This document shows positions 4,517 through 61,990 of a stretch of DNA of 64,000 nt, piece after piece; position 1 is the stretch's first letter; every line of letters starts with the position of its first letter. Source of the DNA: Waddliaceae bacterium (GTDB lineage Bacteria; Chlamydiota; Chlamydiia; Chlamydiales; SLFE01); assembly GCA_963771045.1 (NCBI GenBank), contig CAVYRW010000003.1, positions 15 through 64,014 on the forward strand, given 5' to 3'. A program made the translations under genes and the position numbers. Below the pieces are notes generated by a model. That model made no database searches, was not told the origin of the DNA, and saw only the letters and a list, made by a program, of their open reading frames with translations.

Positions 4517-4919
4517 CGGTGAGATTGCAAGGGACGAACTGATCGAGAAGATCGAAATAGGCCCAAAAGAAGATTTGAAAGTCCTCCTCAAAGCTGGTGC
4601 AATTCACAAAGAATGTTGCAATAAAACGAGATCGACTTGCGCTGATTTTTTTGGACGGTTCGAGATGTTATGGGTATTTGCCTATCATGAGAATATCGAA
4701 CCGACTAACAATACAGCCGAGCAACGTCTTAGAGGCGGAGTCATTTGGAGGAAGCTATGCTTTGGCTCACAATCAGAAGAAGGTGAGCGATTTGTCGAAC
4801 GGGTGTTAACAGTTGGTATGACATTGAAGTTACGTGCTCAAAATTCGTTCGATTATTTTACCGAATGTTTTAAAGCATACATTCATGGCGGACAAGCGCC
4901 GCCGATATTTTCAAAATAG
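4517..4919 (+). pseudogene. IS66-family-like transposase C-terminal remnant
   Basis: 'IEPTNNTAEQRLRGGVIWRKLCFGSQSEEGERFVERVLTV' follows the TNNxAExxLR...RK..FG..S..G pattern of IS66-type DDE transposases. The N-terminal two-thirds is missing. Confidence 0.55.
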
Positions 4920-40100: not shown

Positions 40101-42106
40101 TCGAAAGGATGACATCAGTACAGCAGTTTGATCAGAATGGGACGATGCTTCACTTTAAAGAATTCGAATATGACCCTCGAGGCAATCCGATCACAATCAG
40201 CGATGATATTTACCAAAATGGGCGCTATCAACGAACGCAAACTATTTCTCATGCCTATGACTCAATGAATCGTCTCCACTCGGAAACCCATGGCTTCGAA
40301 AGAACAACCCGCTACTGCTATCATCCATCCGGCTGTTTAGCGACAAAAACTTTGCCAAGCGGTGGAGTTCTGAAATATAGTTATAACAGCCTGGGTTTTT
40401 TGGAGTCTGTTAATTCCTCGGATGGCTCGATCAACCTTATATACCGCACGAATAAATTAGGCGACATCATCGAAGCATCCGACCTCAATCAAGCTTACTC
40501 CCTATCACGAGAATATGACCCTTTTGGAAATATTTTACGAGAACAGACATCCGACGGCCTCCTCCTAAACAAAAAATACGACGGTTTCAGCCGTCCTCTT
40601 GTGATTGATTTTTCAGAGGGATCTCTAGAATACGAATATGATCCCCTCAACCTTCGAAGTGTTTCAAGATTAAACAACCAAAAAAATCAAATTTATAAAC
40701 ACACCTACAACCGCTATGACAAATCGGGCCGCCTTCTTGAAGAATCGCTCATCGGCAAACTTGGCACGCAGAATTTTCGGTATGGCAAAAATGGGAGGAA
40801 AACAGCCTCATCCTCACCTTATTTAACCCAAACTTGTTTTTACGATGAACTCGGAAACCTCATTGAGTCACAAAAAGATAAGACCACCGACCATTATTCT
40901 TATGATCCCCTTTCTCAGCTCGTTTCCGAAAATGACGCCACATACGCTTATGATTCCCTTTTTAATCGGACTCGAAAAAATGATGAGGTATTAGAATATA
41001 ATCATCTCAATGAGCTCCAGTCCAGAGGAGAACAAAAGTACGAATACGACGAATGCGGCAATCTCATTCATGACGGCAAAAGGACCTACACGTATGATCT
41101 ACTTAATCGTCTGATCGAGGCAAAAGATAATCGGCACAAATTCACATACACCTACGATCCTTTTGATCGAAGAATATCCAAAAAAACGACACTATACAGC
41201 GCAAGCGAAGAGCGCATCCTTAACGAAGAGATCTACTTTTACGACGGACAAAACGAGCTTGGAGCCTACACTCCTGACTATCAGCTCAAACAGTTAAAAG
41301 TACCGGGTATAAGAACCTATAAAGACTCATACCAGCCAATTGCGATCGAGCTGCAAGATAGAATTTTTGTCCCGATTCTTGATTGCCACGGAAACATACA
41401 AAAGCTTGTCGATATTGAATCAAAACAAATTACCCATGAATATAACTATACAGCATTTGGAGAAACCCTCTTTGCAACTGAATCCTTCCACAACCCTTGG
41501 AGACATGCCGGAAAACGTCTTGATCCCGAAACAGGTTTGATTTACTACGGCAAGCGATACTACAACCCCTCAATTGGCCGTTGGTTGACAACAGATCCCG
41601 CAGGAACTCACGATTCCACCAATCTCTACCAATACCTGTTCAACAATCCTTTTCAATACTGCGATCCCGACGGACAGTTTGTCTTTTTGATTGCAATACC
41701 CTTAGGGGAAATTATTTTAGGAACGGCTACAGCAGAAGCGATCATTGGTGCAGTAGTGGGCGCTATAGCAGCTTTTGTCGTTTATGAAGGAACTCATTAC
41801 GTTGAAGATTGTGTGAATGAAAATCTCATTACAGATTATGATCATATACTTTTTTCCAAAAATGATGGGGATTTTCATCCTTTCCCAGGAACGAAACCAC
41901 CAGCTAATTCAAATGAATGTCCTGGTGAAGGCTTTGAAAAACGTGGCGGGTCAAAGGGAAATTGGTATAATCCTAACACCCAAGAAAGTTTGCATCCTGA
42001 TTTAGATCATGATCCATCGATTGATCCTCATTGGGATTACCATGATAGAAATGATCCCGATAATAATGGACGTTGGTTTTTAGATGGCACATTCGAAACA
42101 AAATAG
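37184..42106 (+). CDS. full-length RHS/YD-repeat polymorphic toxin (RHS2), 1640 aa
   Basis: Signal/TM N-terminus, dozens of YD repeats, and core end 'RLDPETGLIYYGKRYYNPSIGRWLTTDP...NLYQYLFNNPFQYCDPDGQ'. A hydrophobic segment follows, then a unique tip of about 110 aa ('NWYNPNTQESLHPDLDHDPSIDPHWDY'). Confidence 0.9.
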   Translation: MRIQVHSPFFKRTHVLRLFFLICCLSWISLFAGDDSEDLTPSSPFEISDLSCGREFLVGGFINPLSGQICIHKTDLIAKGAQDIVVNRTYIPPFLPARCDKNPDRDKAMRYKHLWGNYRGFATLPHLSLKTKSNGRIQVVSQNGSLLDFKKTNSGDYVLDNPSYGISNYAAGKPGGQFDVRNIRVNRSDNMVTIHFPDGSRRIYTKLICHSYCLDKEILPSGKVIKYHYQNGDIRLIESTDPMEKHVYASVEIKGSKELGKQEFLASSGAFAKYSYETRMLQAEWKENGGRFKQELLSKPYLTVAEGTFFDKESFSYTHDLFLSECKSLSHPFKSLIGITKTRDNKYHYRVKNLIFDTSDDASFKGVENIEYTPPLPGRRNGETIVQYQDGAKIVYSYTDQLLPESVKSFQPDGSLKKTKIYVWDENNRLSCVQLFEGADELLYKKCYEYDDFGNPTLETITGKTESYCIRREFSQDGMNLLLKEQEESGKEVVYTYLAGTNLPTSKLTFENDTNFQREYWEYDDCHNLIRKIIDDGSSPGTERRMTTYTLRKEAPYLHMPEWIEEKYLQGEDEKTLRKIHLAYDSYGNVSQEDIYDSDGNFRYSIFKEYDKQGNLLSETNALGQSAYYGYDKTGNLLSETSFSGKFKKGYTYDFRGRRLTETHNGSKGELKTFSYEYDNYDQLIQKTENETNITRYAFDSVVLKPTTIQYPSISGSDVKISRTYDALGREIAITDPEGYTTLTIRNLYGLPLQIIHPDGTQEKFCYSKGGYLIEYLDQEGKKTVYDRDILGRVLKKTLFTPSNEEIGSETFVYNTFHLLQETDLEGYTTSYFYDGAGRKIKEEREGRITEYSYDSLGRLAAIKKNTLLHHTEYDLLDRVIQEAKTDLKGSVLYRVDYEYDEDGNRSAVTKNNQSEYFSYDAFGRIINHRDYEGNSTAFSFDDWHLNALGNHVLRKTAVDPLGKTTVSVYDPFERMTSVQQFDQNGTMLHFKEFEYDPRGNPITISDDIYQNGRYQRTQTISHAYDSMNRLHSETHGFERTTRYCYHPSGCLATKTLPSGGVLKYSYNSLGFLESVNSSDGSINLIYRTNKLGDIIEASDLNQAYSLSREYDPFGNILREQTSDGLLLNKKYDGFSRPLVIDFSEGSLEYEYDPLNLRSVSRLNNQKNQIYKHTYNRYDKSGRLLEESLIGKLGTQNFRYGKNGRKTASSSPYLTQTCFYDELGNLIESQKDKTTDHYSYDPLSQLVSENDATYAYDSLFNRTRKNDEVLEYNHLNELQSRGEQKYEYDECGNLIHDGKRTYTYDLLNRLIEAKDNRHKFTYTYDPFDRRISKKTTLYSASEERILNEEIYFYDGQNELGAYTPDYQLKQLKVPGIRTYKDSYQPIAIELQDRIFVPILDCHGNIQKLVDIESKQITHEYNYTAFGETLFATESFHNPWRHAGKRLDPETGLIYYGKRYYNPSIGRWLTTDPAGTHDSTNLYQYLFNNPFQYCDPDGQFVFLIAIPLGEIILGTATAEAIIGAVVGAIAAFVVYEGTHYVEDCVNENLITDYDHILFSKNDGDFHPFPGTKPPANSNECPGEGFEKRGGSKGNWYNPNTQESLHPDLDHDPSIDPHWDYHDRNDPDNNGRWFLDGTFETK

Positions 42107-44335: not shown

Positions 44336-44765
44336 GTATAGGAAAATCAAGCATGTCTAAGGCCTTATCCCTATCTGTATAGAGAGACAGGTGGGCTTAA
44401 ATTCCTTTATTTTTGAGCGATAATTAGCCTCAAATTGTCAATTTGAGGTTTTCTGAGGTTTTCTTCCAGATTTTTGGCAGAGATATGTCTGATTTGGGTG
44501 CGAATGAGAGCAAAAGGTATCGAGTCCCTTCTGGAGCGATTATCGTATTTGGTTCAAAAAGGCGGGTCGATGTTGTCTGTCCAATTGGGTGGATCTATGA
44601 GTGGAGGATCCGGGCCCCATTCTCTTAAGAGTTCGATTTCCTACTGGGGAAAACCCATCCTCAGTCCATGGCAGAAGTTGGCAGATGTTCATTTCAGGGG
44701 TAGGGTAGGGCGGATCGAACTTCTGGATATCGGCCCTGCAGCCTATTCGTTTTAATATGCGTTTG
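44336..44765 (-). mobile_element. IS91-like 3' tail fragment
   Basis: Homologous to 35206-35640. Hairpin at 44428-44448. A small tandem duplication GAGGTTTTCT lies next to the hairpin. Confidence 0.7.
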
Positions 44766-45743
44766 ATTCTCAATGCCCCAATGACCTCGAGTTGATTTGG
44801 ATATTTTCTCAGCTGTAGCTGAATGTGAGGATATATAATATCTAATTTCTTCGGTCGTCCTCCCATCAAGTGTCCGATAGCTTATCAACATCGAAAGACT
44901 TCTTAAACCCAACCATTCTTCCTTCATCGGCAGCCAATCAACATCACCTGTTACATATATTTCCCGTCGTTCTTGTCTGCCGTGTTTATTATCTTCTGAA
45001 ACAGAAAAATCATGAGGAACGCCTTCAAATTCAATGTCTCTTGCCTGCTTAAAATAATTTTCGAGTTCTTCATATAATTTGTGTTGATTATCCTTTACCA
45101 TCAGAACATAGTCCGCACCTTGATCTATGATTTTTTTTGCAATTTCCTTTTGGCAACCCATAGCATCAATTGAGACTGTCGCACCTTTTAGATCAATGCT
45201 TTCAAGAAGTTTCGGAATTGCTGTTATCTCATTTGAATTTACGTCCGTTTTTATTTGTCCTAGAATAAGGCCTCTATGTGAAGACCAAGCAGAAACCATA
45301 TGCAAAAGAGATTTAGGTGTCTTTTTTTTATTAGAGGCACCTCTTACACGCTTGCCGTCAATCGTAATAAAGTCATCAATTTCATTTTTTGAAATAGAGG
45401 ATGTCCATTTTCGGAAAAGCATTTCAGTTTTTTTTGGATCGAGACGAACAAGAAGCCACCAGAATGTATTATAGGAAGGCACTTCGTCAAAATCAAGCCA
45501 CGTCATCAACCACTTTTTTTTGGAAACAGCATATTGATGGATTGCACTGATACTATTAGCATCTGCTATGACGGCACAAAAAATGATGGCGAGTAGAGTA
45601 AAAAGATTATATTTTAAATTGTCTTTACATCTTGGATCTTGGGTAGAACTGGCAACGCTCTTTAGTCGATCCCTAAATTATTCAATGTCAAGTGATTTAG
45701 ATTCTTCTTCATAAGGTTCATTTTTGATTCCTCTTGCACACAT
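44766..45743 (-). pseudogene. ISAs1-family (H-repeat) transposase remnant
   Basis: 'IDGKRVRGAS', 'SNEITAIPKLLESIDLKGATVSIDAMGCQKEIAKKI', 'RYYISS', 'HWGIEN'. The C-terminus is cut at 'IEN', there is an in-frame TAA near the N-terminus, and there is a frameshift at the T9 run 45513-45521. Confidence 0.8.
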
Positions 45744-49385: not shown

Positions 49386-49702
49386 TAGTCCCTGATTAAA
49401 GTAAGGGTCATAGAGCAATATCGTAGGTGGGAGATTATGCGACAACAATGGAAAAAATCCGAGGATTTTCATTGATGAAGGGACCGGCCTTTTCCAACTT
49501 GTAAGGTGCTGGCCATATTCCTAACATCAGAATCGCACAGTAACATTTATCATGTTATCGTTTCATGTTTAAGTGATTTGAAGATGTCGTTGGTGTTAAA
49601 CCGGCTTCCCGCGGGAAAGTGCGCGAGACTTCTCCTCAAAGGCTTTTCTTTAAAAAATGTCTGGTTTCTGTTACTTTTTTGCTTCAGTGGGGGAATTGTT
49701 GC

Positions 49703-51533
49703 ATGGAGGATGAGTTACAGCGAGTTTACCGGCAGCTCTATGATGTTGTGGTTCCTGATCTCGACTATTATTTGCGCCAAATTGACTGCAGGGACGGCTG
49801 CCCGGTGAATACGGACGGCAGGGGCTATATGCTGGCAATTCACGCGGGTAATTTCTTAGAGGGATACAAGATTGCCAGAGGGCCGAACCCCTTCGCTTCT
49901 ATTTGCGGCATGATCTGCGGGGCGCCGTGCGAGATGACATGCCGGAGGGACAGGGTCGATAAGACGCTGACGATCAGGGCGCAGAAGCGGTATTTGGACG
50001 AGTGGTTCGGTTTGGACAAAGAGGCGCATGTCAAGTCGCTGGAAATGAGCTATTCGAGAGGGTCGACAAATCCGAAGCCCAACGGGCTGAAGGTGGCGTG
50101 CATCGGGGCGGGGGTAGCGTCGCTGACGGTGGCCCATGATTTGCTCCGCCTAGGGTATGCAGTCGATGTGTATGAGATGATGCGGATGCCGGGAGGGATG
50201 CTGACTTACGGCGTGCCGACTTATCGCTTGAAAAACGATGTGGCGTTGAATGAGTGCTTTGCGATCGAGCATCTGGGGGCCAAAATCATTTGCAACTGCA
50301 AGGTGGGGCGCGATATCACGATGACTGAGCTTCAGGAAAAGTACGACGCTGTATTCATCGGAGTGGGGCTTTGGAAGTCAAGGGATCTGCCGATACTGGG
50401 TGCGGACGGGCCGGATGTGATTCGAGGAATCGAGTATCTGCGGGTCAAATGCGCCGAAGAAGAGTGGAAGATCGGCGACAATCTGGTTGTTGTCGGCGGC
50501 GGAAATGTGGCGTTCGATGTGGCGAGGACATCGGTGAGAAACGGAGCGAAAGTGACGATGGTGTGCCTTGAGGCGCGGGATGAGCAGACAGCTGATGAGT
50601 TTGAGATCGAAGATGGGTTTGAAGAAGGGATCACGATCATCAACAGGGTGGGCCCGAAAGAGATATTGCGTGATGAAAACGGCAGGATTGAGGCGGTCAG
50701 GGTGCAGCGGGTTTCGAAGCTTTTCAATTACAAGGGGGGATTTGCTCCGGAGTTTGTCGAGGGTGGATGTGTTCGATATTCCCTGCAACGCGGTAGCTCT
50801 TTCTATCGGCCAGGCGATGGACGAGAGCTTTTTGAATGGCTGGGATAGAAGAGACGAGTTGGCAGTCGAAAGAGGCGTTGTAAAGGTGGAGCGCGGGACG
50901 GGCCGGACTTCTGTTGAAGGCGTGTATGCTGCTGGCGACGCGGCTTATGGAGCGGCGCTCTTCATTACAGCGATTCGGCAGGGACAGGAAACGGCAAGAG
51001 CCATCGACGCAGATCTTCGCGGGACGCGGCCATATATGGAAGTTCTTGGAGAATTTACGGAAATTTCTCCAATGAGAGACAAAGAGTATCTGAGGACCGA
51101 TTATGCTTTGCCGACGTCGCAGCCTCCGCATGTGCGCAAGGATAATTACAATATGGTGGAAAATAACTATACGGCCGAAGAGGTGCATCAGCAGGCCAAC
51201 CGCTGTCTGCAGTGCCATGTCAATCCGGTTTTCGACGGGGCGCTTTGCATCAAGTGCAACGGGTGTGTCGATGTTTGTCCGTGCAATTGTTTGAAGCAGG
51301 TTCCGCTGAGTCAATTGAATATGGATCTTGGCGAGGGGAATATAAGAACGGCTGTCGATCATTATTATGGAATAGATTCTGCAAATACGGATGAGGAAGA
51401 GCTTGAATTGATAGGGACGGCAATGTTAAAAGATGAAGATTTGTGCATTCGATGCGGACTGTGTGCAGAAAAGTGTCCGACGCAGGCGGTGACGATGGAT
51501 GTGATGAATTATTCTTTCCGGTGGATCGGATAA
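49703..51533 (+). pseudogene. GltD-like NAD(P)H flavoprotein fused to a 2x[4Fe-4S] ferredoxin domain; one frameshift at about 50765
   Basis: 'ICGMICGAPCEMTC', 'VACIGAGVASLTVAHDLLRLGYAVDVYE..PGGML.YGVP.YRL', 'VVVGGGNVAFD'. After the frame change: 'AIGQAMD', 'GVYAAGDA', 'CIKCNGCVDVCPCNC', 'CIRCGLCAEKCP'. Confidence 0.75.
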
Positions 51534-51670
51534 TGCTTGAGACTTTGGTCTTTACATTGGCCGCGGGATGTTCCGGATTGTTGGTCTGCCTGTACTTTTG
51601 GAAAAGAGGGCAGTTTGAAGATTGTGAAGATGTGAAATATCAAATGTTTCGAGATGAAGAGTGTGATTGA
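51533..51670 (+). CDS. CcoS/FixS-like micro-protein (45 aa)
   Basis: TAATG overlap with the upstream gene. A single TM is followed by '[23 protein letters not shown]', the CcoS-type W..k.GQf.D motif. Confidence 0.5.
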
Positions 51671-52185
51671 TTATGCCGAAACATCGAAATTCATTGAATG
51701 TCGACAAAGATGATGAAGACCCAAGGATCTCCAGGCGATCGTTTCTTGCGCTTTTGGGGGTGGGAGCGGGAATCATCGGCGCGGGGCAAATGTTCGGGGT
51801 GTCGATGCTGGGATTTTTATATCCCAACGCGATGAAAACGCCGCCGAGCACGTTTTCTATCGGCCGCCCGAATGAAGTCTTGTCGAAAGATGGAAAAGTT
51901 TTTTATCCGAAGCAGAAAGTGTTTATTGAAACGCTTGGGGGAAAGGTGCGCGTTCAGACGGCCGTCTGCACTCATTTGGGCTGTACGGTGAATATGGTTG
52001 AGACGGGCTACGCCTGCCCCTGCCACGGATCGACCTATGACCAGCACGGACGAAATACAGGAGGGCCGGCTCCTCTTCCGTTAGTTTATTTCAATGTTTA
52101 TCAGGGCGCTTCAGGAGATATTATGGTGGACAAGTCAAAGACAACACTGGACTACCGGGCGGCGTGGTTTTCGCCGACGGCGTGA
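51667..52185 (+). CDS. Rieske [2Fe-2S] protein with Tat signal
   Basis: '[14 protein letters not shown]', 'CTHLGCTV', 'CPCHGSTYD'. Confidence 0.9.
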
Positions 52186-52200
52186 ACTAGAAGGAACGGT

Positions 52201-53530
52201 ATGGCAGTATTTACAGGAAAACCTCGGGAGACGTGGGCGGAGCATATCGCAAGACTTCCGGCAAATTTTGTGCGGTCGATTTTTCGGCATAACTATCCGA
52301 ACAACGACGTGGATCGTTCGGAGATTGTTTTTAAGAATTTTTTTCTTCATTTTCATCCGGTCAAGTGCCACAAGCACTCGCTCGACCCTTTTTATACTTT
52401 GGGACTGGGGACGATCACGACGAGCCTGTTTATCCTTTTGACGATTACAGGCGTGATTTTGATGTTCTATTACATACCTGCCGAGGACCGGGCGTTTAAC
52501 ATCATGAAGGACTGGCAGGACACGACGCCGTTTGCCATGATGTACCGCAACATGCACCGGTGGAGCGCTCATATGATGGTGCTTTTTGTGTTTTTGCACA
52601 TGTCGCGGGTGTTTTATACGGCCGGTTACAAAAGCACGCGGAAATTCAACTGGGTTATGGGAGTGATTTTAATGGTGCTGACGCTTGCTGCTTTCGTTTA
52701 CAGGGTATCTGCTTCCCTGGGATCAGCTGGCGTTTTGGGCGGTGACGGTGGGATCGGAGATTGCCGGCTACGCGCCGAATATTCCCGGTTTTGAGTACAA
52801 TATCAACAAAGTGATGCTTCTGGCGTCGACGACTGTCGGCCAGGATGCTTTGATTCGGTTTTACGTGCTGCATGTCGCGCTTCTTCCTCTGGTGACAGGG
52901 ACGATGATCGGGGTCCATTTTTGGCGCATCCGAAAAGATGGCGGGCTCTCCCGCCCTCCCGATAAAATCCGTCCCGATCCCTACCGCGTGGTTCAAAGGT
53001 CGGATACAAAAGAGTCTTTTGCTCCCGGGGTGAAGCGGACATATGGTTTGATGGAGCTTGTGAGGGGAACATGTCCGACAGTGGACAAGGGGCCTTATAA
53101 ATTTGTGTTTACATGGCCGCATCTTCTTAGGGCGGAGCTTTTGGTTTTTTTCCTGACGACGGTGCTTGTTTTGGCGCTTAGTCTTTATCAACGCTCCACT
53201 TGAAGAGCCGGCCAACCCGAGCAAGCCGCCGAACCCTTCGAAAGCTCCCTGGTATTTTCTGGGGCTTGCAGGAGATGGTTTCCTACAGCGCTTTTTGGGG
53301 CGGCGTTGGAATTCCGGCGTTGATTGTCGTTGGATTGATGCTTATCCCCTATCTCGACCGCAATCCCAATGGCGAGGGATATTGGTTCCACAGAAGCCGC
53401 TACCTGGCTGTCTTTCTTGTATACGGCGTTTATGACGATGCAGGGGATATTGATTGTTATTGGGTCGATATTTAGAGGCGCGAATTGGGGATGGATATGG
53501 CCTTGGACAGAAACATTTGCGAGACACTAG
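52201..53530 (+). pseudogene. cytochrome b (b6 plus subunit IV fused type), four successive frame changes
   Basis: Frame 1 carries 'RWSAHMMVLFVFLHMSRVF'. Next comes '[15 protein letters not shown]...LHVALLP', then '[14 protein letters not shown]', then 'IPYLDRNP', then 'FRGANWGWIWPW*'. Breaks are near 52690, 53185, 53268 and 53440. Confidence 0.8.
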
Positions 53531-53531
53531 A

Positions 53532-53828
53532 ATGAAACTTAGATCGGAAGATTATTATCAAATAGCGCTCATCGCATCGGCGGTGGTGGTCACGGTTTTG
53601 TTCGGCGTTTTTTTATATCGCGAAATTTATCCTCAGTACAAGATTTTTCAAAAGGATTACGTTGCTCTTGAGGAGTTTCGGTCGACTTATACGGCAGCGC
53701 CTCCTCCCCCGTTTAAATTCGGGGTGAAGCAGATCGTAATTCCCGATCCGGAAAAGGGCCCTCCAACGATCGACAGGTGCATCTCCTGTCATGTGGCCCT
53801 TAAATTTGAACATTTTTCCCCGAAGTGA
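53532..53828 (+). CDS. membrane-anchored monohaem cytochrome c (98 aa)
   Basis: N-terminal TM and 'CISCH'. The stop overlaps the GTG of the next ORF (GTGA). Confidence 0.55.
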   Translation: MKLRSEDYYQIALIASAVVVTVLFGVFLYREIYPQYKIFQKDYVALEEFRSTYTAAPPPPFKFGVKQIVIPDPEKGPPTIDRCISCHVALKFEHFSPK

Positions 53829-56800
53829 TTGCCCGCGATGTGAACGGCTCGATCATTTACGACAAAAACGGCATTCCGAAGAAAGCGCCAAATCCGAATT
53901 ATATCTGGAAAAAGCTCGATGAAAAAATCGCCGACCTGAAACAAAAAGGCGATGATGCCGAAGCTGAAAGACTGGAGTCTTTGAAAACAGTTCATGTCGA
54001 CGGACATGACTACCGGGTCGACAAAGCGCTGATCATGCATCCTTTGATCGGAAGGGAGACGCGTCCCTTCGAGTATCATCCGGTTGATGAGTACGGATGT
54101 ACGGTATGTCATGGGGGCAATGGAAGAAGCCTTGTCACATCCCGCGCCCACGGCCCTGTTTATGAAGGGCAGTATGAGGAAACTTACATGGGACCGAAGC
54201 CGGAGTTTCTCGAAGAGGATATTGAAAATAATCCGGAGTTTGCCAAAGCTTACGGCGGCAAGCCGGGCCACGAGCTCCTTTTCCAAACGACGCCGCTTCT
54301 TGTGGGGAATTTGATTCAGGCCAAGTGCGTTCTTTGCCATAAACCGACAAGCCGGAAATTATCCGGCCTGGCGTCCAATGTCAAGAAGGTTGCCGAGACG
54401 AAATCGGAGCAGATCGATGTGATCAGAAAAGGGTTTGAGCAGGAATACAATGCTCTGGTCGCTCTTCTTTCCTTAAGAAAGTTTTTGAATGAACAAGGGA
54501 TTCAACAGACGTTCGAGACTCTGCAGAAACAATCGGAAAACTACACCCTTCCTCCGGAGGAGCTGAAAAAGATTCGGGGCAACATCAACTATTTGCGCGA
54601 GTCGATTGTTCAGGCGGAGCAAGACCCTTACCGGGAGCAGAAGGTGCTCAAAAAAATCGACGCGGATCTGCTGAAGCTTTTAGGATCGAAAAAAGTTGTG
54701 GAGGCGGTGCAGAAGGCTTTTGATGAGAATGAGGACATGACTTTGGGTCAGATGTGGGAGCTTTTGAAGAAAGAGAGAGTGGAAGGAAAGCTGGGATCGC
54801 TTCATATCAAAGGCGATATTCTTGAGAAGCAAAAAAGTCTCAAAACCAGTGTGGAAAGCATGACCTATTCGGTAAGCCGCGCGGCGGGCTCGAAGGAATT
54901 GGTTTCGGGACTTGAGAGCGATATCGATCGATTGACAAAAGACGTTCAGCGGGGAGAAGGGCTTTTCTTTTCTCAAGCCTGCTATGCCTGCCACAGAATT
55001 ACCGGACTCTCGCGGGGAGGCGTCGGACCCGAGCTGACGGACGAAGGGCTTCGGGAGCCGTGGTTTGTCAAAGAATCGATTGTATGGCCGCAGGCGGATC
55101 TGAAAACCTCGACGATGCCAAACTACAGAATGGATCACGAAGAGATTGAAGATCTTGTGACATTTTTGCTCGCGCAGCGTCCCGAGAACCAGTCAAGGCA
55201 GGGAATGGAGGGTAAGAGCCGCCTGAAAGCTTGGGAAGAGGGAAACAAGAACGAGTGGGAAGAGGCGATATCACCTAGTGAAATACGGGATGTGCAAAAA
55301 TCAATGGAGATTTTCGCGACCGAAGGGTGCGCTGCCTGCCATCGGCTGAAAGGATTTGATGCGAATGTCGGGTTTGCCATTGAAAAAGAGAGCCCCACTT
55401 TCGATGAGCTGTATGAAGAGAAGCAATGGTTCCAAAAGCTGTTCCCCGAGCATGAGCTTGGATCGAATATTGTGCAGACGATCGAAAGTCATATGGAGGA
55501 AATCGACAAAAGAATTGTCGATGACGTGCAAAAAGATGCTATTTTAGATGAGATTGAAAAGAAATACCCTAAGCTCATCGAATCGTATTATGCCGACTTT
55601 AAATTCGCCTCGCGGGCCAAAAACCATGAGTATGAAACGCTGATAGAAAACGCATCGAGCCTGGATGAGAAAAGGGCTTTGAAAGAAGAGCTTAGCGCCT
55701 GGAAAGAGCGGGTTCATCGGATTTTGCTTATGTTTGTCCAGGAATATGGGCTGGGAAGGCAGATCGGTCCCCGTTTGAATTGGTCGGGCATTTACCGATC
55801 GGACAAATGGCTGATGGAGCATTTTTGGAACCCTTCATCACTAGCGGCCCGTTCGATCATGCCTGTCTTCCCTTTTGACAACACCAAATTTTTGGCTCTG
55901 ACTTATATGCTGGGTTCGCTGGGCCAAAAAAATCGCGGCGAGCTAAGAGAAATTTGGAACAAAAGGGGCTTCAATCCCGAAATGGCTTTCGACATGCTTT
56001 GCGCCCAGTGTCATGGAAACCATTTAAAAGGGAACGGACCCGTTTCGGAATGGATCTATCCCGTTCCGAAAAATTTGAGCAATCCGGTCTTCATGCGCAA
56101 TCTGACAAAAGAGCGGGCGATCGAGTCGATCACTCATGGGATCCACGGCACCCCCATGCCTCCTTGGGGAGAAGCGGCCAAAGACAAAGACTTTGTCAAT
56201 GTTGCCCCTGTGCTGGGAAAAGAGGATATTGCCCAGCTGGTGAACTGGATATACCGCAATCTTCCGGGAGAGAGATTTATCCGGGAGGAAGAGAAAGAGG
56301 TGCAGAAGTGGGAATACCGTCCGGAAGATGTGATCAAGGATCTAAAGAAAGCAGGAGATGTTTTAGAGTCTAAGCCGCAGTCAAGCCTGGGGCTGCCCAC
56401 AGGCGGAGAGTATATCGCCTCGCTGACCCCTGTGATCGCTGCGGCGCCCCAGCAAAATCTGGCAGTCGAGGATGTCTTCGATGTTATGCTCAATCCTTAT
56501 GGCGGCCTGGAAAAAAACAATTACTATATCAAAAAGAAGTACTACACCAAAGTAAATCTGGCTGAAGGGAAGGCATTTTTTGAGCTTAACTGTGCCATAT
56601 GCCATGGCAAGGAGGCCGATGGGGCCGGCCTTCGCGCCGGCGTTATGGAAGAGGCCAAGCCAAGAATGCTCATCAACCTTCCGTGGATTGAAAGCCGCGA
56701 CGACTTAAGGCTGATCCGTTCAATTTATTATGGCGTTCCCGGCACTTCCATGATTGCCTGGGGGGATCAGACAACGTCGAAACAACGTCTTCAGCTTGTG

Positions 56801-57568
56801 ATGTACATACGGAGCCTGACGGAAAGCAAGCGGGATTACGAGCAGTTTAAAAATGTCCTCTTTCAGGTTTTTCAAAGTCCTGTCTGGGCCATTGAGGACG
56901 CCCGCTCGTCCGTCTCGAAAAAAATCGGGGAGCTGGAAAAACAATCTTACGAAACGAGAGAGTCGCGCCAGAAGATGGAAGATCTGGTCAAATCAGGAGA
57001 AGTCAAACCAGAGAAGATCGCCGCTGTCTACAGTAAGGAACTCAAATCCCTTAGGGAGCTTGAAAAATATCGCGAGATAGACAAAATTCTTTCTGATTTG
57101 ATTAATCAAGTCAAAAAAGAACAGGATCTTTATCAATCCCTTGGCGACTCGATTTTCAAACTGTATGGCGAATCAGAGGTTTTTACCGATTTTTTGCATG
57201 CTGTTTCTGCAAATCAAAATCATTTTTCCTATAAAGATGAAAAGCTGCGTGAGCGGCATGCCGATGGAAAAAAGCTTGCGGAGTTCAAAGACGATATTTT
57301 GAAGATCATCGGTGAAAATATTCAGGAGCTTGATTACTGGGAAAGTGTGGAAAAAGGGAAAATTTCAACATCTGGAAAAAGGGAAAAACTCAGCGAGATC
57401 AAGAAAAGCCTGCAGCAGCAAAAGCAGCTTGAAAAAGAGACACTATCGACCTTTTCACAGCTTGACCGTCTGCGCGAAAAGCAGAAGAAAACTTATGAAG
57501 ATTATATAAAAAAACTAAAAATTTTGGATCAAAGCGATGACAGAAGCAGCGAAAGCAAAATATCATGA
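53825..57568 (+). CDS. giant multihaem cytochrome c (6 CxxCH) with a coiled-coil C-terminal region
   Basis: The CxxCH motifs are CTVCH, CVLCH, CYACH, CAACH, CAQCH and CAICH. The last two modules resemble CcoP-type dihaem domains. The C-terminal ~330 aa are K/E-rich and heptad-like. Confidence 0.75.
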   Translation: MIARDVNGSIIYDKNGIPKKAPNPNYIWKKLDEKIADLKQKGDDAEAERLESLKTVHVDGHDYRVDKALIMHPLIGRETRPFEYHPVDEYGCTVCHGGNGRSLVTSRAHGPVYEGQYEETYMGPKPEFLEEDIENNPEFAKAYGGKPGHELLFQTTPLLVGNLIQAKCVLCHKPTSRKLSGLASNVKKVAETKSEQIDVIRKGFEQEYNALVALLSLRKFLNEQGIQQTFETLQKQSENYTLPPEELKKIRGNINYLRESIVQAEQDPYREQKVLKKIDADLLKLLGSKKVVEAVQKAFDENEDMTLGQMWELLKKERVEGKLGSLHIKGDILEKQKSLKTSVESMTYSVSRAAGSKELVSGLESDIDRLTKDVQRGEGLFFSQACYACHRITGLSRGGVGPELTDEGLREPWFVKESIVWPQADLKTSTMPNYRMDHEEIEDLVTFLLAQRPENQSRQGMEGKSRLKAWEEGNKNEWEEAISPSEIRDVQKSMEIFATEGCAACHRLKGFDANVGFAIEKESPTFDELYEEKQWFQKLFPEHELGSNIVQTIESHMEEIDKRIVDDVQKDAILDEIEKKYPKLIESYYADFKFASRAKNHEYETLIENASSLDEKRALKEELSAWKERVHRILLMFVQEYGLGRQIGPRLNWSGIYRSDKWLMEHFWNPSSLAARSIMPVFPFDNTKFLALTYMLGSLGQKNRGELREIWNKRGFNPEMAFDMLCAQCHGNHLKGNGPVSEWIYPVPKNLSNPVFMRNLTKERAIESITHGIHGTPMPPWGEAAKDKDFVNVAPVLGKEDIAQLVNWIYRNLPGERFIREEEKEVQKWEYRPEDVIKDLKKAGDVLESKPQSSLGLPTGGEYIASLTPVIAAAPQQNLAVEDVFDVMLNPYGGLEKNNYYIKKKYYTKVNLAEGKAFFELNCAICHGKEADGAGLRAGVMEEAKPRMLINLPWIESRDDLRLIRSIYYGVPGTSMIAWGDQTTSKQRLQLVMYIRSLTESKRDYEQFKNVLFQVFQSPVWAIEDARSSVSKKIGELEKQSYETRESRQKMEDLVKSGEVKPEKIAAVYSKELKSLRELEKYREIDKILSDLINQVKKEQDLYQSLGDSIFKLYGESEVFTDFLHAVSANQNHFSYKDEKLRERHADGKKLAEFKDDILKIIGENIQELDYWESVEKGKISTSGKREKLSEIKKSLQQQKQLEKETLSTFSQLDRLREKQKKTYEDYIKKLKILDQSDDRSSESKIS

Positions 57569-58982
57569 CGGCCCGACAAAGTGGCTGATCTATCCGGCAC
57601 TCTGTTTTATGATTGTAGGGATGACCATCGGGGTTTTTATCTCCTATAACACATTTATCTTCCCTGACTATTTTTCCGGTGAGTATATTCATTTTGGGAA
57701 GCTAAGACCCGTCCATGTGATGGGCGTTTTGCTCCTTTGGCTGCTGTCGGCAAACCTGGGTCTTTGCTATTTTTTGGTGCAGAGGCTTTGCGGGGTGAGG
57801 ATTTGGAGCGTCAAGCTCGCTTATGTGTCGATCGCCCTTTGGTGGTTTGGATTGATCTTCAGCCAGTTTTCCTATCCCTTCGGAACCAACTATGGCTGGG
57901 AGTACGATGAAACTCCTATGTTCGTCTGGTGGCTGCCTGTTAAGCCGATGATTATTCTGGCCTGGGTTTTAACGCTCATTAATTTTTACGCCACCACCTA
58001 TTACAGGAAAAATGAAAAGCTTTATGTTTCGATGTGGTATGTTCTTGCCGCGATGCTTTGGGCGACGGTGGTCTTTTGGGTGGGAGGCTTCAGCCTGGAA
58101 TTTTTGCCGATGGGGATCTCGCGGGTTAACGCGGAGTTTTTTTATGTCCACAACCTGGTTGGATTGATTTTCACTCCCCTTGGGCTGGCGATCGCTTATT
58201 ATTTTCTGCCGAAGCTTGCCAATACCCCGATTTACAGCCATAAATTGTCGATGATCGGTTTTTGGTCTCTTGCCTTTGTTTATGGATGGGTCGGAGCCCA
58301 TCATATCATCCATGGACCGATCACCCAATGGATCCAGACGGTTTCGATCATTTTTTCGGTCTGGCTTTTCGTTCCTGTATTTACCGTGGTCCTCAATATT
58401 TTCGCCACGCTGCAGCCGAATTGGAAGCAGTATACCGAAAGCGCCGCTGTCCGCTTCATTGTGATGGGAAACATATTCTATCTGATCACATCGGTTCAGG
58501 GGACGTTTATGGCTCTTCGCAATATCAACGAAATCACATCCAAAACCGATTGGGTGATTGGGCACTCTCATATTTCCCTCTACGGAACATTTACGTTTTT
58601 TGCCATTGCGGGCATCTTTTATGTTGTTCCTGTGATGACTAAAAAACCCCTTTGGTCGACGAAGCTTGCCAATTGGGCGTTTGCCTTGAATGTCCTTGGA
58701 AGCGTTCCTTTTATTTTGGCGCTTTGGATAGGCGGCTACCTTCAGGGTCTTATGTGGGCGAGTTGGGCGATAGGTGTCAGCTATGCCGAGTTCCAGGCTA
58801 ATTTGAGCAATCTTCCCTTTTTACAAACGCTGGCAAACACCTACCCCTGGTGGCTTCTCCGCAGCATTGGCGGGACGATTATTCTTTTTGCCAACATTTT
58901 ATTTGTCATCAATATTTTCAATACGATTGTGTTAAAACCGAGAGAAGACGTAGCGAAAGTTAACGTTGAGGCGGCATCATGA
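57537..58982 (+). CDS. ccoN: cbb3-type (C-family) haem-copper oxidase subunit I
   Basis: Collinear His ligands: 'LRPVHVMG', 'FYVHNLVG', 'GAHHIIHG', 'WVIGHSHISLYG'. Confidence 0.85.
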   Translation: MTEAAKAKYHDGPTKWLIYPALCFMIVGMTIGVFISYNTFIFPDYFSGEYIHFGKLRPVHVMGVLLLWLLSANLGLCYFLVQRLCGVRIWSVKLAYVSIALWWFGLIFSQFSYPFGTNYGWEYDETPMFVWWLPVKPMIILAWVLTLINFYATTYYRKNEKLYVSMWYVLAAMLWATVVFWVGGFSLEFLPMGISRVNAEFFYVHNLVGLIFTPLGLAIAYYFLPKLANTPIYSHKLSMIGFWSLAFVYGWVGAHHIIHGPITQWIQTVSIIFSVWLFVPVFTVVLNIFATLQPNWKQYTESAAVRFIVMGNIFYLITSVQGTFMALRNINEITSKTDWVIGHSHISLYGTFTFFAIAGIFYVVPVMTKKPLWSTKLANWAFALNVLGSVPFILALWIGGYLQGLMWASWAIGVSYAEFQANLSNLPFLQTLANTYPWWLLRSIGGTIILFANILFVINIFNTIVLKPREDVAKVNVEAAS

Positions 58983-60253
58983 GCGAAAACAATAACAAGA
59001 AATTCATGGATACCGTTCATCGGTCTTTTTTGCTCACATTTTTGGGCATTGCCCTTCTGTTTTCCACGGCGATCACTGTGACCCTCATTGCTCCAAGACA
59101 TGTCGATCCCACATGGAGGCAGCCGTCGAGCTATTATCAGGTGCAGATGTTCGAGGTGGCCGATCCCAATTTTTTTATCAGCAGCGAAGCCAGCGGAATC
59201 AAAAGACTCGAGTATCTCAAACGGCTTGTGAAGGATTTCAGTCTTCTCGCATTCGAGGAAAACGAGGCATCAAGAATTATCGCTCCCCCCGAACTTGAAA
59301 AATTTGTCACGAAATACGGAGAAAAAAAGCTCAAACTCACCTCTCGGCTCCTTTTGCTGCGCAATCCGGTCTCATCTGAGCAATTCGATGCCGAAAAAAT
59401 TGCGAAAGATTTGAAGGAAAAGCTTCAGCAGGAGGCCAAGAAACAGAGCAAATTTTTGATCGACTACAGAGTTTTAGAACTCTACGATCCCGGCCTTAAA
59501 GAAGCGTTTACCATGTCCAGCTCCGAGGGGATTATTGAGGATTTTGTCGACGATAATTACGAGATTTTGGATGGTGAGCTAAAACAGCTGTGGCACCGCG
59601 ATCCCGGGGTGATTTTTACAAAAAACCCCGAAGAGTACCGCATCCGGCCGATCGGCACCGGCAGGCAGAGGGGCTGGAGGTACGATCCGGAAGGAAAGAG
59701 TATTGAGAGCGTCGCCGAGCTGGAAAGTCCTGAGCTTGGATTCCGATCAAGGAAAGAGCTGATTGAATTGGGGCAGACGATATATGCGCACGAGGGATGC
59801 TGGTACTGCCATACGCAGCAGACAAGAACCCTTGTGCAGGATGTTGTGCTCAACGGCTCTGAATCCTACCCCGCTCCCCCGTCGGCGCCCAATGAATACA
59901 TCTATCAGAAGGTGAGCTTTCCAGGTACAAGGCGCATCGGTCCCGATTTGTCCCGGGTGGGGGTGAAGAGGCCTAGCAGGGACTGGCACAAGGCTCATTT
60001 TTGGTCGCCGAGAACAGCCAGCGCGGGAAGCATCATGCCATCGTTCCGCCATTTCTTCGACTTTGATCCCAGGGGATCGAGGAAGACCGAAGCGGGCATT
60101 CCCAATTACCGTTTTGAGGCTGTCTACCAGTATTTGATGACGATGGGAACGCGTATCACTCCGCCTACAGAAGCGTGGTGGCTGGGCAAGGACCCTGTGC
60201 AAACTTTAGAAATTATAGAAGGGAGGAAAGCCATTGATCATCGCGGACCTTGA
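58979..60253 (+). CDS. ccoO: CcoO-like monohaem subunit with a long insertion (424 aa)
   Basis: ATGA overlap with ccoN. 'GQTIYAHEGCWYCHTQQTR', 'GTRRIGPDLSRVG', 'WHKAHFWSPR....GSIMPSF'. About 200 extra aa lie between the TM anchor and the haem domain. Confidence 0.75.
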   Translation: MSENNNKKFMDTVHRSFLLTFLGIALLFSTAITVTLIAPRHVDPTWRQPSSYYQVQMFEVADPNFFISSEASGIKRLEYLKRLVKDFSLLAFEENEASRIIAPPELEKFVTKYGEKKLKLTSRLLLLRNPVSSEQFDAEKIAKDLKEKLQQEAKKQSKFLIDYRVLELYDPGLKEAFTMSSSEGIIEDFVDDNYEILDGELKQLWHRDPGVIFTKNPEEYRIRPIGTGRQRGWRYDPEGKSIESVAELESPELGFRSRKELIELGQTIYAHEGCWYCHTQQTRTLVQDVVLNGSESYPAPPSAPNEYIYQKVSFPGTRRIGPDLSRVGVKRPSRDWHKAHFWSPRTASAGSIMPSFRHFFDFDPRGSRKTEAGIPNYRFEAVYQYLMTMGTRITPPTEAWWLGKDPVQTLEIIEGRKAIDHRGP

Positions 60254-60263
60254 CGGATTCGGC

Positions 60264-60407
60264 GTGACCGGATCCTATCTGCACTTTACCCTCTCCGCGG
60301 CTTTAGTGGGAAGCTCCCTTCTGGTCCTGATTGTGCTGTGGCGAAAAGGGCGCCTCGACTTTGACGAGAGCCCGAAAATCACTATGATGGAAAGTGACGA
60401 AGGATAG
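60264..60407 (+). CDS. CcoS/FixS-like micro-protein (~47 aa, not in the ORF track)
   Basis: TM 'LSAALVGSSLLVLIVLW' followed by 'RKGRLDFDESPKITMMESDEG'. A GTG start at 60264 is assumed. Confidence 0.45.
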   Translation: MTGSYLHFTLSAALVGSSLLVLIVLWRKGRLDFDESPKITMMESDEG

Positions 60408-60410
60408 CTT

Positions 60411-60674
60411 ATGAGCGAGAAAGAGTATCTGTTTTACGAGGATGACGACTCCGTCCCACCCTATAAAAAAGAGGACCCCGGCGTGCCCCTTTGGCTGAAG
60501 CTTGTGATTCTGACCGTCCCATTTTGGGGATTTGCCACATTTTACATCTACTGGAACGGCAATTTCGGGGACTGGCTCGACAGGGGCTACTGGGGCGAGC
60601 TTCAGCAAGCGGCCAACACCACGTTTCCTTCCGAAACCAAGATTCCCGTCTCGGCTAAGAAGATTGAGAAGTAA
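60411..60674 (+). CDS. small membrane protein resembling the CcoP N-terminal anchor (FixP_N-like), no haem domain
   Basis: 'EDPGVPLWLKLVILTVPFWGFATFYIYW' resembles the 'N.lP.WW...F' anchor of CcoP. There is no CxxCH. Confidence 0.4.
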   Translation: MSEKEYLFYEDDDSVPPYKKEDPGVPLWLKLVILTVPFWGFATFYIYWNGNFGDWLDRGYWGELQQAANTTFPSETKIPVSAKKIEK

Positions 60675-60853: not shown

Positions 60854-61711
60854 ATGCAAGTAGATAAAACTAATCCAAATAACAATGTAGCAGTACAAAA
60901 TTCAACCGCTCGTGACCCTGCGGCCGTTCTCCCTCCTGAAATGGTTTTAGAGATATTTTCCAACTTAGACCTTGGTGATCTTGCGGCATGCCAGCAGGTC
61001 TGCAGAGAATGGCGACCATTGGCGGCAGACCCCAAACTCCCTGGTTTAAACGCCATAGCTCAAGTACGCGAGCTGAAAAAGGAATTCCCCCATTTTCCCA
61101 TCTTCGGTCCCGAAGAGTGGGTGAAATACTATGGCCGTATAGATAAAAACGATATCAAGCCTCTTTCACCTGAAATGATCAAGATTATTAAAGGCGTCTT
61201 GCCCAAATGCCAAGGGAAGAAAGGGCATGAGGTCCTTAAGCTGACTTATTTTCCTAAAACCGTCAATGGAAAACCGCTGACTCCGAATAACTTTGAAGAG
61301 CTGATCCAGAACCCCAAAGAGGGTCATGCGGCTAAATATGATTACTTTTGGCCTGCAGCTAGACAAGAACATGGCGACACACCGATCGAAAGAGCCCATT
61401 GGACTTTATCGACAAAAGATGTAATCGAAGGAAGCAAAGGCAAAACAGAGGATGAGCTATTGGCCCTTGCCAAAAGTATTGGCCCCGGCTGGGGAGTGCC
61501 CACAGCATTGGGAGCGGTAGTCTCTACTGTTTCAGAGTATACCGCTACAGGAGTTCGTCGACTTGGCATTGATTCTTTTACATTTACGCTCTGCCAAGAG
61601 CAGACGTCTGGAATGAATTTGGCGGTTGGCGGCTTTGCTCCTTCGGGTCTCGACGTCAGCAACCACTTCATCAACGACTCTCTCGGTGTTGTGTCGCAGC
61701 GGAAGTTCTAA
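60854..61711 (+). CDS. F-box domain protein (eukaryote-like effector candidate)
   Basis: 'LPPEMVLEIFSNLDLGDLAACQQVCREWRPLA' fits the F-box consensus. The C-terminal ~200 aa are unassigned. Confidence 0.8.
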   Translation: MQVDKTNPNNNVAVQNSTARDPAAVLPPEMVLEIFSNLDLGDLAACQQVCREWRPLAADPKLPGLNAIAQVRELKKEFPHFPIFGPEEWVKYYGRIDKNDIKPLSPEMIKIIKGVLPKCQGKKGHEVLKLTYFPKTVNGKPLTPNNFEELIQNPKEGHAAKYDYFWPAARQEHGDTPIERAHWTLSTKDVIEGSKGKTEDELLALAKSIGPGWGVPTALGAVVSTVSEYTATGVRRLGIDSFTFTLCQEQTSGMNLAVGGFAPSGLDVSNHFINDSLGVVSQRKF

Positions 61712-61834: not shown

Positions 61835-61854
61835 GCGTCTTTCACCCTTATTGT

Positions 61855-61990
61855 TTACATCTACTGGAACGGCAATTTCGGGGACTGGCTCGGCAGGGGC
61901 TACTGGGGAGAGCTTCAGCAAGCGGCCAACATCACCTTTCCTCCCGAGACCAAAATCCCCGCTTCAGCAAAGAAGATTGAAGAGAAGTAG
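61855..61990 (+). pseudogene. duplicated 3' fragment of the 60411-60674 gene
   Basis: 'TTTACATCTACTGGAACGGCAATTTCGGGGACTGGCTCG.CAGGGGCTACTGGGG' matches 60541-60674. No start codon. Confidence 0.8.

Follow-up and report, generated by a model that had tools for sequence, protein, structure and literature searches.

Why should the gene of an NAD(P)H flavoprotein lie in line with those of a Rieske/cytochrome b module and of a terminal oxidase? The question is raised by a stretch of 64,000 nucleotides (nt) from a Waddliaceae bacterium (contig CAVYRW010000003.1), denoted here the window, which carries at positions 49703-60674 genes for a GltD/NfnB-type flavoprotein, a Rieske protein, a cytochrome b, a giant cytochrome c and a cbb3-type oxidase. 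The best explanation overall, to which roughly an even chance is given, is a conserved respiratory operon whose products would make up one menaquinol:O2 supercomplex with a docked flavoprotein. Clustering of these genes is far beyond chance, because the same gene order recurs in about 60-70 other genomes.

Gene order and its conservation

The cluster consists exclusively of plus-strand coding sequence and, once the frame breaks discussed below are corrected, contains nine tightly packed genes. A Pfam scan gives Fer4_20, Pyr_redox_2 and two Fer4 domains, a weak FixS-like match, Rieske, cytochrome b, a large c-type cytochrome, COX1 (CcoN) and FixO (CcoO). These calls agree with the gene labels of an earlier reading made from the sequence only, which had also recognized the compact single-strand layout, and all the junctions that it quoted are found in the sequence. 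Its count of ten genes has to be lowered to nine. The supposed monohaem and hexahaem cytochromes c are two frames of one gene, and the GTGA at 53825, taken for the junction between them, is a 1-nt deletion within this gene. The haem count changes as well, as one protein with seven CxxCH motifs is encoded in place of two.

The flavoprotein gene starts with the ATG at 49703, and its junction with the gene for a peptide of 45 amino acids (aa) reads TAATG (51531-51535). The latter ends with the TGA at 51668-51670. The Rieske gene may start at the TTG at 51667, overlapping the peptide gene by 4 nt, or at the ATG at 51673, leaving a 2-nt gap. A 15-nt gap separates Rieske and cytochrome b (ATG at 52201), and a single nucleotide lies between the cytochrome b stop (53530) and the ATG of the giant cytochrome c at 53532. 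Giant c gene and ccoN overlap by 32 nt (57537-57568), ccoN and ccoO meet in an ATGA at 58979, ccoO overlaps by 20 nt a 57-aa open reading frame (ORF), and 3 nt separate this from an 87-aa ORF, with which the cluster ends at 60674. A scan for promoters and terminators was uninformative, as it gave consensus matches only and intergenic gaps are nearly absent. Upstream of the cluster lies an AAA_14/DUF4143 gene, and no assembly genes of the ccoG/ccoI type adjoin the cluster in the window. The GC content is 0.48-0.51 against about 0.42, and a GC skew is also seen. On these grounds a foreign island was considered; the idea is unsupported, as order and content are kept across chlamydiae, though flanks differ.

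In the survey of conservation each species was represented by a single genome, and the query was an alignment of giant cytochrome c homologues; the genome of the window does not belong to the collection. The scan gave 80 chlamydial loci, in which gene order was checked by tblastn with nine Waddlia proteins. Wherever the contig allows, the order is flavoprotein, FixS-like peptide, Rieske, cytochrome b, giant c, CcoN, CcoO and two small proteins of ~57 and ~84 aa. The flavoprotein gene is upstream in 59 of the 60 loci with enough sequence, and ccoN directly follows the giant c gene in 64 of 71. Sequence motifs are kept too: CTHLGC in all 69 loci, CPCHGST in 68 of 70, APWY in all 74, the twin-arginine motif in 67 and the CcoO haem motif in 63. 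Closest to the window are two Waddliaceae metagenome-assembled genomes (MAGs), one 91% identical in nucleotides over 11 kb (L005) and the other about 74-81% (L003), which agrees with an environmental, Waddliaceae-like chlamydia as the source. In seven loci (L022, L034, L035, L061, L068, L073, L074) no ccoNO genes are found within 4-8 kb downstream. These genomes keep the flavoprotein-Rieske-cytochrome b-giant c series, or at least giant c where upstream sequence ends. In the two of these loci that were examined, the giant c gene is followed by a pirin-like gene (L034) or by an M48 peptidase gene (L074).

Linkage to cbb3 genes, which could have been special to this genome, is standard in environmental chlamydiae and is found also outside them. 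A common arrangement in the lineage was one of the findings that the earlier reading had named as counting against it, and this is what is seen. In spite of being so common, the association of flavoprotein, Rieske/cytochrome b, fused c/CcoP and cbb3 was not found described as a unit, but only in partial mentions, in a search of literature outside subscription journals. PetBD and CcoNO are listed among chlamydial respiratory complexes by Dharamshi et al. (2023). In public records the proteins go under 'FAD-dependent oxidoreductase', 'cytochrome b6' and 'c-type cytochrome'.

The corrected flavoprotein was used for an exhaustive, profile-free search, in which the chlamydial proteins form one 50% cluster. 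Roughly a hundred further clusters were identified, whose members are about 600-650 aa long and 35-46% identical over the full length. In Nitrospirota (L084) and Leptospirillum (L088) the arrangement is flavoprotein-Rieske-b6-subunit IV-multihaem c, without oxidase. The full series, meaning flavoprotein, FixS, Rieske, cytochrome b, cytochromes c, COX1, FixO and a small protein, with FixG and a CcoI-like ATPase frequently coming next, is found in an Acidobacteriota MAG (L089), in two unidentified MAGs (L086, L087) and in an Anaeromyxobacter-like MAG (L090), which has a fused cytochrome b and one cytochrome c of 559 aa.

The four full-series clusters have the gene order and families of the chlamydial ones, at identities to the window of 40-43% for flavoproteins, about 50% for cytochromes b and 35-41% for CcoN. 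They differ from chlamydial clusters in several respects. Charged helical insertions and a tail bring the chlamydial cytochrome c to 2.4 times the length, chlamydial CcoO has an insertion of ~200 aa, a second FixS-like peptide is encoded, and the ccoG/ccoI-type genes are not adjacent in the window. The linkage of flavoprotein and Rieske/cytochrome b genes had been regarded as a hallmark of anammox bacteria. As it occurs also in Nitrospirota, Leptospirillum, Acidobacteriota, the Anaeromyxobacter-like MAG and the two unidentified MAGs, the arrangement is therefore specific neither to anammox bacteria nor to chlamydiae. An occurrence beyond anammox bacteria had been hinted at by Dibrova et al. 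(2017).

Frame breaks in three genes

In the window the reading frames of the flavoprotein, cytochrome b and giant c genes are interrupted, a circumstance overlooked in the first description of the cluster. Compared with L005, seven single-base insertions or deletions (indels) fall in a patch of 3.06 kb (50764-53824), and six of them break frames. Insertions are at 50764 (T), 52190 (G, intergenic), 52687 (G), 53183 (C), 53265 (C) and 53413 (T); one base is deleted after 53823, in the giant c gene. No further frame-breaking indels relative to L005 are present at 49703-50763 or 53825-60665. When uncorrected, the flavoprotein spans two ORFs (49619-50848 and 50568-51533), with the frame change at 50764; cytochrome b has four +1 shifts (52687, 53183, 53265, 53413); and the two cytochrome c ORFs 53532-53828 and 53825-57568 belong to one protein of 1345 aa. 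Fragments of 381 and 238 aa (flavoprotein), 197 aa (cytochrome b), 98 and 1247 aa (giant c) are found in the deposited record of the contig (64,843 bp). Removal of the indels gives proteins of 609, 441 and 1345 aa, exactly the lengths found in L005.

Corrected genes have no in-frame stops, and their comparison with L005 is indicative of strong purifying selection. The ratio of nonsynonymous to synonymous substitution rates (dN/dS) is 0.023 for the flavoprotein, 0.026 for Rieske, 0.040 for cytochrome b, in which 8 of 441 residues differ, 0.087 for giant c, 0.025 for ccoN and 0.057 for ccoO. Because L005 is intact and dN/dS is low (0.02-0.09), the six frame breaks are most probably consensus errors of the assembly, and not biology. 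The patch has the look of an assembly artefact because seven indels occur within 3.06 kb without excess substitutions. Matches in more than one frame were seen for cluster genes in eight sources, this window included, and six of the seven other loci are from MFD-named MAGs (L035, L044, L050, L061, L066, L079).

The frameshifts might alternatively be real, and the operon might be decaying in this bacterium, with flavoprotein, cytochrome b and giant c being pseudogenes of a respiratory branch that is getting lost. Six frame-breaking indels across three genes, deposited as fragments, are what decay would leave; the inserted bases lie mostly outside long homopolymers, transposase fragments and another broken gene are found in the window, and respiratory modules have been lost in some chlamydiae, as in Neochlamydia S13 and the seven loci without ccoNO. 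Still, the dN/dS values of 0.023-0.040 in the corrected broken genes equal that of intact CcoN, in-frame stops are absent, and four independent indels in 1.3 kb under neutral drift should have come with many more substitutions than the few seen in cytochrome b. None of the seven indels falls in the downstream 6.8 kb of the operon. Bacterial pseudogenes are usually biased towards deletions, whereas five of the six frame-breaking indels are insertions. Comparable multi-frame matches in the MFD-named MAGs similarly argue against decay, which is regarded as quite unlikely.

The additional broken gene encodes an OEP/TolC-like protein (25263-26803, minus strand). Its coding sequence is spread over three frames, forming a second patch of frame breaks in the contig where GC is raised, and its AcrB (26800-29910) and membrane-fusion (29888-30970) neighbours are intact. 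This gene points in the same direction, i.e. to an assembly error.

Two other accounts of the broken frames were rejected. Programmed frameshifting does not fit, as the six sites have no common motif and frames are uninterrupted in L005, L003 and Waddlia. A separate 'monohaem c' gene does not exist, as its product is the N-terminus of giant c in every relative.

The encoded proteins

The corrected flavoprotein (49703-51533, plus strand, 609 aa) features an N-terminal Fer4_20 domain with two iron-sulphur (FeS) clusters, a pair of FAD/NAD(P) Rossmann domains and a C-terminal 2x[4Fe-4S] ferredoxin, for a total of four predicted FeS clusters. No transmembrane (TM) helix or hydrophobic segment is found in it. 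Residues 27-514 match the NfnB/GltD/SudA family (E down to 8e-77), the best PDB matches being 9bov/9bp5, 9n5u, 8oh5, 4ylf and 5jca, all of the NfnB/GltD family, followed by GltD (2vdc); the ferredoxin domain matches FwdF (5t5i). Pfam and PDB searches thus bear out the initial assignment to GltD-type flavoproteins with an extra 2x[4Fe-4S] domain. The templates 9bov/9bp5 and 5t5i are the same used for Kuste4570, the NAD(P) reductase of Kuenenia (PMC12954380).

The flavoprotein shares with NfnB, GltD and SudA the N-terminal two-cluster, FAD and NAD(P) domains. It differs from them by the added C-terminal domain and by the motif at the nucleotide site, and no partner gene of the NfnA or GltB type is alongside, the neighbours being membrane respiratory genes. 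It belongs to the same fold family, but is neither a glutamate synthase nor Nfn. At residues ~300-312 (~50600-50640) the NAD(P)-binding beta2 strand terminates in CLE(A/S)R throughout the family, where GltD has CLYRR. The motif hints at specificity for NADH rather than NADPH.

The Rieske [2Fe-2S] protein (51667-52185, plus strand, 170-172 aa), recognized by Pfam and PDB searches, carries a twin-arginine signal/anchor, for which the TAT_signal model reaches its cut-off, and the motifs CTHLGC and CPCHGSTY. The second, in box II, includes a Ser and a Tyr of the kind linked to a high potential. Both residues are found in Kuste4569, for which +303 mV was measured. The leading PDB matches are Rieske proteins of Kuenenia or of b6f type; Kustd1480 of Kuenenia (9rk3) is first, and Kuste4569 (9rk4) ranks third. 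A relation to anammox complexes, as first suggested, is therefore retained for the Rieske match and for the templates shared with Kuste4570; what falls is its being a hallmark.

Cytochrome b (52201-53530, plus strand, 441 aa corrected) is a fusion of b6 and a subunit IV-like part, and matches Pfam Cytochrome_B and Cytochrom_B_N_2. Among PDB entries it is closest to b6 (E=2e-37, vs ~1e-23 for bc1 cytochromes b); the Tat signal of the Rieske protein is as the sequence-only reading had it. The Qo motif is APWY. The position of haem cn reads TLGLG, with no Cys; a split b6 with a separate subunit IV carrying the CxGG haem cn cysteine is not what this single polypeptide offers. In this region C(M/L)GG is kept in Nitrospirota and Leptospirillum, whereas the oxidase-linked subgroup lacks the CxGG cysteine. 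By its APWY motif it falls in the 'APWY clade' (Kao and Hunte, 2014), as yet uncharacterised, whose complexes pair with mid-to-high-potential Rieske proteins. In the cytochrome b tree of Baymann (2012) Waddlia and Parachlamydia are grouped with Kuenenia 1/2, and such cytochromes b fall into unusual clades in these two studies as well as in Dibrova (2017), where oxidoreductase genes adjoin cytochrome b genes. All flavoprotein-linked cytochromes b carry near the N-terminus (residues ~45-60; 52201-52400) a motif F(L/M)(L/Y)H.H, absent from spinach b6. The first His is conserved in the seven proteins compared (including L084 and L086-L089), and is a candidate ligand of the extra haem b predicted in AlphaFold3 models of Kuenenia.

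The giant cytochrome c (53532-57568, plus strand, 1345 aa corrected) has seven CxxCH motifs, all invariant in an alignment of 10 chlamydial homologues, one N-terminal TM helix, and charged helical, coiled-coil-like insertions and tail. It is 1345 aa long in L005, 1321 in L003 and 1291 in Waddlia; a look-up of the window protein itself gave no record. Homologues number in the hundreds, and all named ones are from environmental chlamydiae (Waddlia chondrophila, Estrella lausannensis, Protochlamydia, Parachlamydiaceae, Chlamydiales STE3). In BLASTP comparisons residues ~17-800 are colinear with the pentahaem c366/c368 proteins of L086/L089, which have a FixO-like end, and residues ~820-1100 with a CcoP-like protein, the dihaem c264 of L089 or c163 of L086. 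In L089 c368 and c264 are encoded by separate genes and have five and two CxxCH motifs, which add up to the seven chlamydial haems. Giant c is, by this colinearity, a fusion of the pentahaem c of the bc complex and the CcoP-like dihaem c of the oxidase. The 559-aa cytochrome c of L090, located at the giant c position, is already fused. The early suggestion that a giant cytochrome c replaces CcoP fits these data, as a CcoP-like dihaem cytochrome with a gene of its own in Acidobacteriota is the homologue of its C-terminal portion. No gene for a dihaem CcoP in one polypeptide with a FixP_N anchor is present, the dihaem domain being within giant c.

CcoN (57537-58982, plus strand, 481 aa; COX1 E=4e-75) is the catalytic subunit I of a C-family (cbb3) oxidase. 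It aligns best with Pseudomonas stutzeri 3mk7_A, and the His ligands of haem b, haem b3 and CuB and the cross-link Tyr of helix 7 are all in register (RPVH, YVHN, VYGW..AHH, GHSH). The CcoO-like monohaem subunit II (58979-60253, plus strand, 424 aa; FixO E=5e-23; haem motif CWYCH) is made of an N-terminal TM helix, an insertion of ~200 aa and a FixO domain; CcoO chains in PDB, matching residues 250-360, belong to proteins that are usually about 200-240 aa long. A cbb3-type oxidase with all metal ligands and an unusually long CcoO is thereby confirmed. NCBIfam scores (ccoN 264.8 bits vs an equivalog cut-off of 583; ccoO 71.6 vs 200.7) mark both as divergent members of their families. In L003 (MAG CSSed162cmB_602, 9328-10602) CcoO is called as two ORFs of 134 and 280 aa, possibly a frame break or an assembly error.

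Two small peptides, each with a single TM helix, are FixS/CcoS-like, as already proposed. The first (51533-51670, plus strand, 45 aa) matches Pfam FixS with E=4.8e-4, below the curated cut-off, and its position at the flavoprotein/Rieske junction is conserved in 70 loci. Peptides at the same position match FixS in L086, L087 and L089, and weakly in L090. The second (60234-60407, plus strand, 57 aa) takes the place of ccoQ in ccoNOQP operons. The two are paralogous, since in tblastn the L003 homologue (s60) of the second matches also 51545-51661, and share the motif [YF]xW[RK]KG[RQ][LF]D..E.PKYQM, present in 46-69 family members. Non-chlamydial clusters have the first peptide only.

The last gene (60411-60674, plus strand) encodes an 87-aa protein that lacks haem motifs. 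Single-sequence searches of Pfam and NCBIfam with the 57-aa and 87-aa proteins gave no match. The five top PDB matches of a profile of 31 homologues of the 87-aa protein are CcoP chains, in the N-terminal anchor only (EYDNPLPRWW and the TM helix). The profile therefore agrees, at weak E values, with the proposed CcoP-anchor-only (FixP_N-like) protein.

The 3' end of this gene is duplicated by a direct repeat of 127 nt, 91% identical (60541-60667 and 61854-61980). An F-box-domain gene sits between the repeats (flanked region 60854-61711), and is absent after the cluster in L003 and L005. It looks like the insertion of a eukaryote-like effector gene with target duplication. Elsewhere in the window are found RHS/YD-repeat polymorphic toxin genes and associated sequences (827-4006, 3991-4305, 6623-7927, 8927-10513, 12498-13841, 37184-42106), one of which is followed by an Imm53 immunity gene and one ends with a Ntox37 domain. 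Transposase fragments are located near the RHS genes (4575-4919, IS66-like; 44694-45509, DDE_Tnp_1).

Proposed electron flow and related complexes

How might these proteins work together? Chlamydiae use menaquinone. The nine products would assemble into one menaquinol:O2 oxidoreductase, in which electrons may run from the Qo site to Rieske, the seven c haems, CcoO and CcoN without any diffusible carrier. The heptahaem protein would stand in for both cytochrome c1/f and CcoP. The flavoprotein would dock at the cytoplasmic face of cytochrome b, as in Kuenenia models, and exchange electrons with the chain of low-potential b haems.

The direction of this exchange is harder to call. Bifurcation at the Qo site, with one electron of menaquinol going to O2 and driving the other, through b haems, FeS clusters and FAD, to NAD(P)+, is proposed tentatively, at somewhat less than an even chance. 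Hard-wiring to O2 reduction would supply the driving force. Reduction of NAD(P)+ is favoured over input from NAD(P)H because a high-potential Rieske protein working with menaquinone would force the b haems to very low potentials, an argument already made for NAD(P)+ reduction in anammox bacteria (PMC12954380).

Flow in the opposite direction requires exactly the same architecture. NAD(P)H would reduce the b haems or the Qi side through the flavoprotein, in a self-contained NAD(P)H:O2 chain reminiscent of FNR-ferredoxin feeding b6f in cyclic flow. Electrons would pass downhill from NAD(P)H (-320 mV) to menaquinone (about -70 mV), NADH, to which the conserved Glu of CLE(A/S)R would also point, is abundant in the heterotrophic hosts, and expression of respiratory genes in Protochlamydia rises at a late stage, in which glucose is being catabolized. 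On the other hand, such a chain could dispense with the pairing of a high-potential Rieske signature and an APWY Qo motif, the haem cn cysteine is lost and the integrity of the Qi site uncertain, and oxidation of NADH is already provided for in chlamydiae by Na+-NQR, often also by complex I. Input is rated a possible, but doubtful, use of the complex.

The genes could also be merely neighbours, encoding separate enzymes: a menaquinol:cytochrome c reductase, a cbb3 oxidase with a tethered multihaem carrier comparable to cytochrome cy, and a soluble NfnB/SudA-like oxidoreductase that never touches cytochrome b. A bc module without adjoining ccoNO in seven of 71 loci, members of the flavoprotein family away from Rieske/cytochrome b genes, and a flavoprotein devoid of TM helices with soluble NfnB/GltD relatives would all be accommodated. 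Against this, flavoprotein and Rieske genes are adjacent nearly throughout chlamydiae (59 of 60 loci) and again in other phyla, their junctions being translationally coupled; the FLH motif is in every flavoprotein-linked cytochrome b; the bc cytochrome c includes the CcoP-like dihaem domain in its own polypeptide, and only a haem-less anchor is left with the oxidase genes. In addition, Kuenenia homologues co-migrate as one complex, according to papers citing de Almeida (2016). Separate enzymes are thought unlikely, and the supercomplex with a docked flavoprotein is preferred.

Several points weigh against this preference. Co-transcription and physical association are deduced from gene order. 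The bc and oxidase modules are separable, as follows from the seven of 71 loci without ccoNO, and in L085 and L091 homologous flavoproteins are encoded alone, without Rieske/cytochrome b. Likeness of flavoprotein and cytochrome b to those of Kuenenia comes through templates and published trees. A direct PDB search with giant c hit only a Kuenenia cytochrome domain (6h5l_B) and no CcoP, and PF13442, found in giant c, is a generic class-I cytochrome c domain. The similarity of the 87-aa protein to the CcoP anchor is weak (E=0.002-0.5). CLE(A/S)R in place of the GltD motif leaves even the nucleotide uncertain, and a heterotrophic intracellular bacterium has no obvious need for NAD(P)H made from quinol. 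The complete proposal, a hard-wired menaquinol:O2 supercomplex with Qo bifurcation to NAD(P)+, widespread in Chlamydiota, Acidobacteriota and Myxococcota, is advanced as a possible, but doubtful, reading.

If true, it would provide an aerobic counterpart of a still-unproven anammox mechanism. Until now, the possibility that Rieske/cytochrome b passes its low-potential electron to NAD(P)+, and not back to quinone, had come up only with regard to anammox bacteria, whose cultivation is difficult. The module described here is present in tractable hosts, such as Waddlia, Parachlamydia and Protochlamydia, grown in amoebae, as well as in Anaeromyxobacter-like and Acidobacteriota organisms, has O2 as simple acceptor, and would be testable in cultivable hosts. 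The cluster also revises the current picture of chlamydial respiration, scored as separate 'PetBD' and 'CcoNO' modules. The window itself holds no gene content beyond that of the Waddlia genome, available since 2010, and its frame breaks advise caution on assembly quality.

The proposed complex resembles known systems, and differs from each. The Kuenenia clusters Kuste4569-4574 and Kustd1480-1485 likewise combine Rieske, b6-type cytochrome b, a multihaem c in place of cytochrome f/c1 and a FAD/NAD(P) subunit with four FeS clusters, and the Ser/Tyr high-potential signature of Kuste4569 is also in the window Rieske. In contrast, the cytochrome b of the window includes subunit IV in one chain and has no haem cn cysteine, its cytochrome c has seven haems and a CcoP-like part, and an extra FixS-like peptide is encoded. 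The partner is a cbb3 O2 reductase and not a HAO-like octahaem protein, and the host is an aerobic/microaerobic intracellular heterotroph, not a chemolithotroph.

In the bc1-cbb3 (CIII2CIV) supercomplexes of Rhodobacter capsulatus and Pseudomonas aeruginosa, Rieske/cytochrome b is similarly coupled to cbb3 through membrane-attached c haems. When cytochrome c1 and CcoP were joined by engineering in Rhodobacter capsulatus, the resulting bc1-cbb3 supercomplex was functional (PMC7876108); giant c is the natural counterpart of this fusion. The window differs in having a b6-type cytochrome b with APWY rather than bc1 with PEWY, five c haems for the single c1 haem, and CcoP in two pieces, a haem-less 87-aa anchor and a dihaem domain that has become part of the bc cytochrome. 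Moreover, all parts are in one operon, and a cytoplasmic flavoprotein is added. The actinobacterial bcc-aa3 complex (QcrCAB-CtaCDEF) also does without soluble cytochrome c, the multihaem c of its complex III passing electrons directly to the oxidase. The oxidase is there an A-type aa3 and in the window a C-type cbb3, two haems contrast with seven, Qo motif and cytochrome b lineage differ, and a flavoprotein is featured only in the window.

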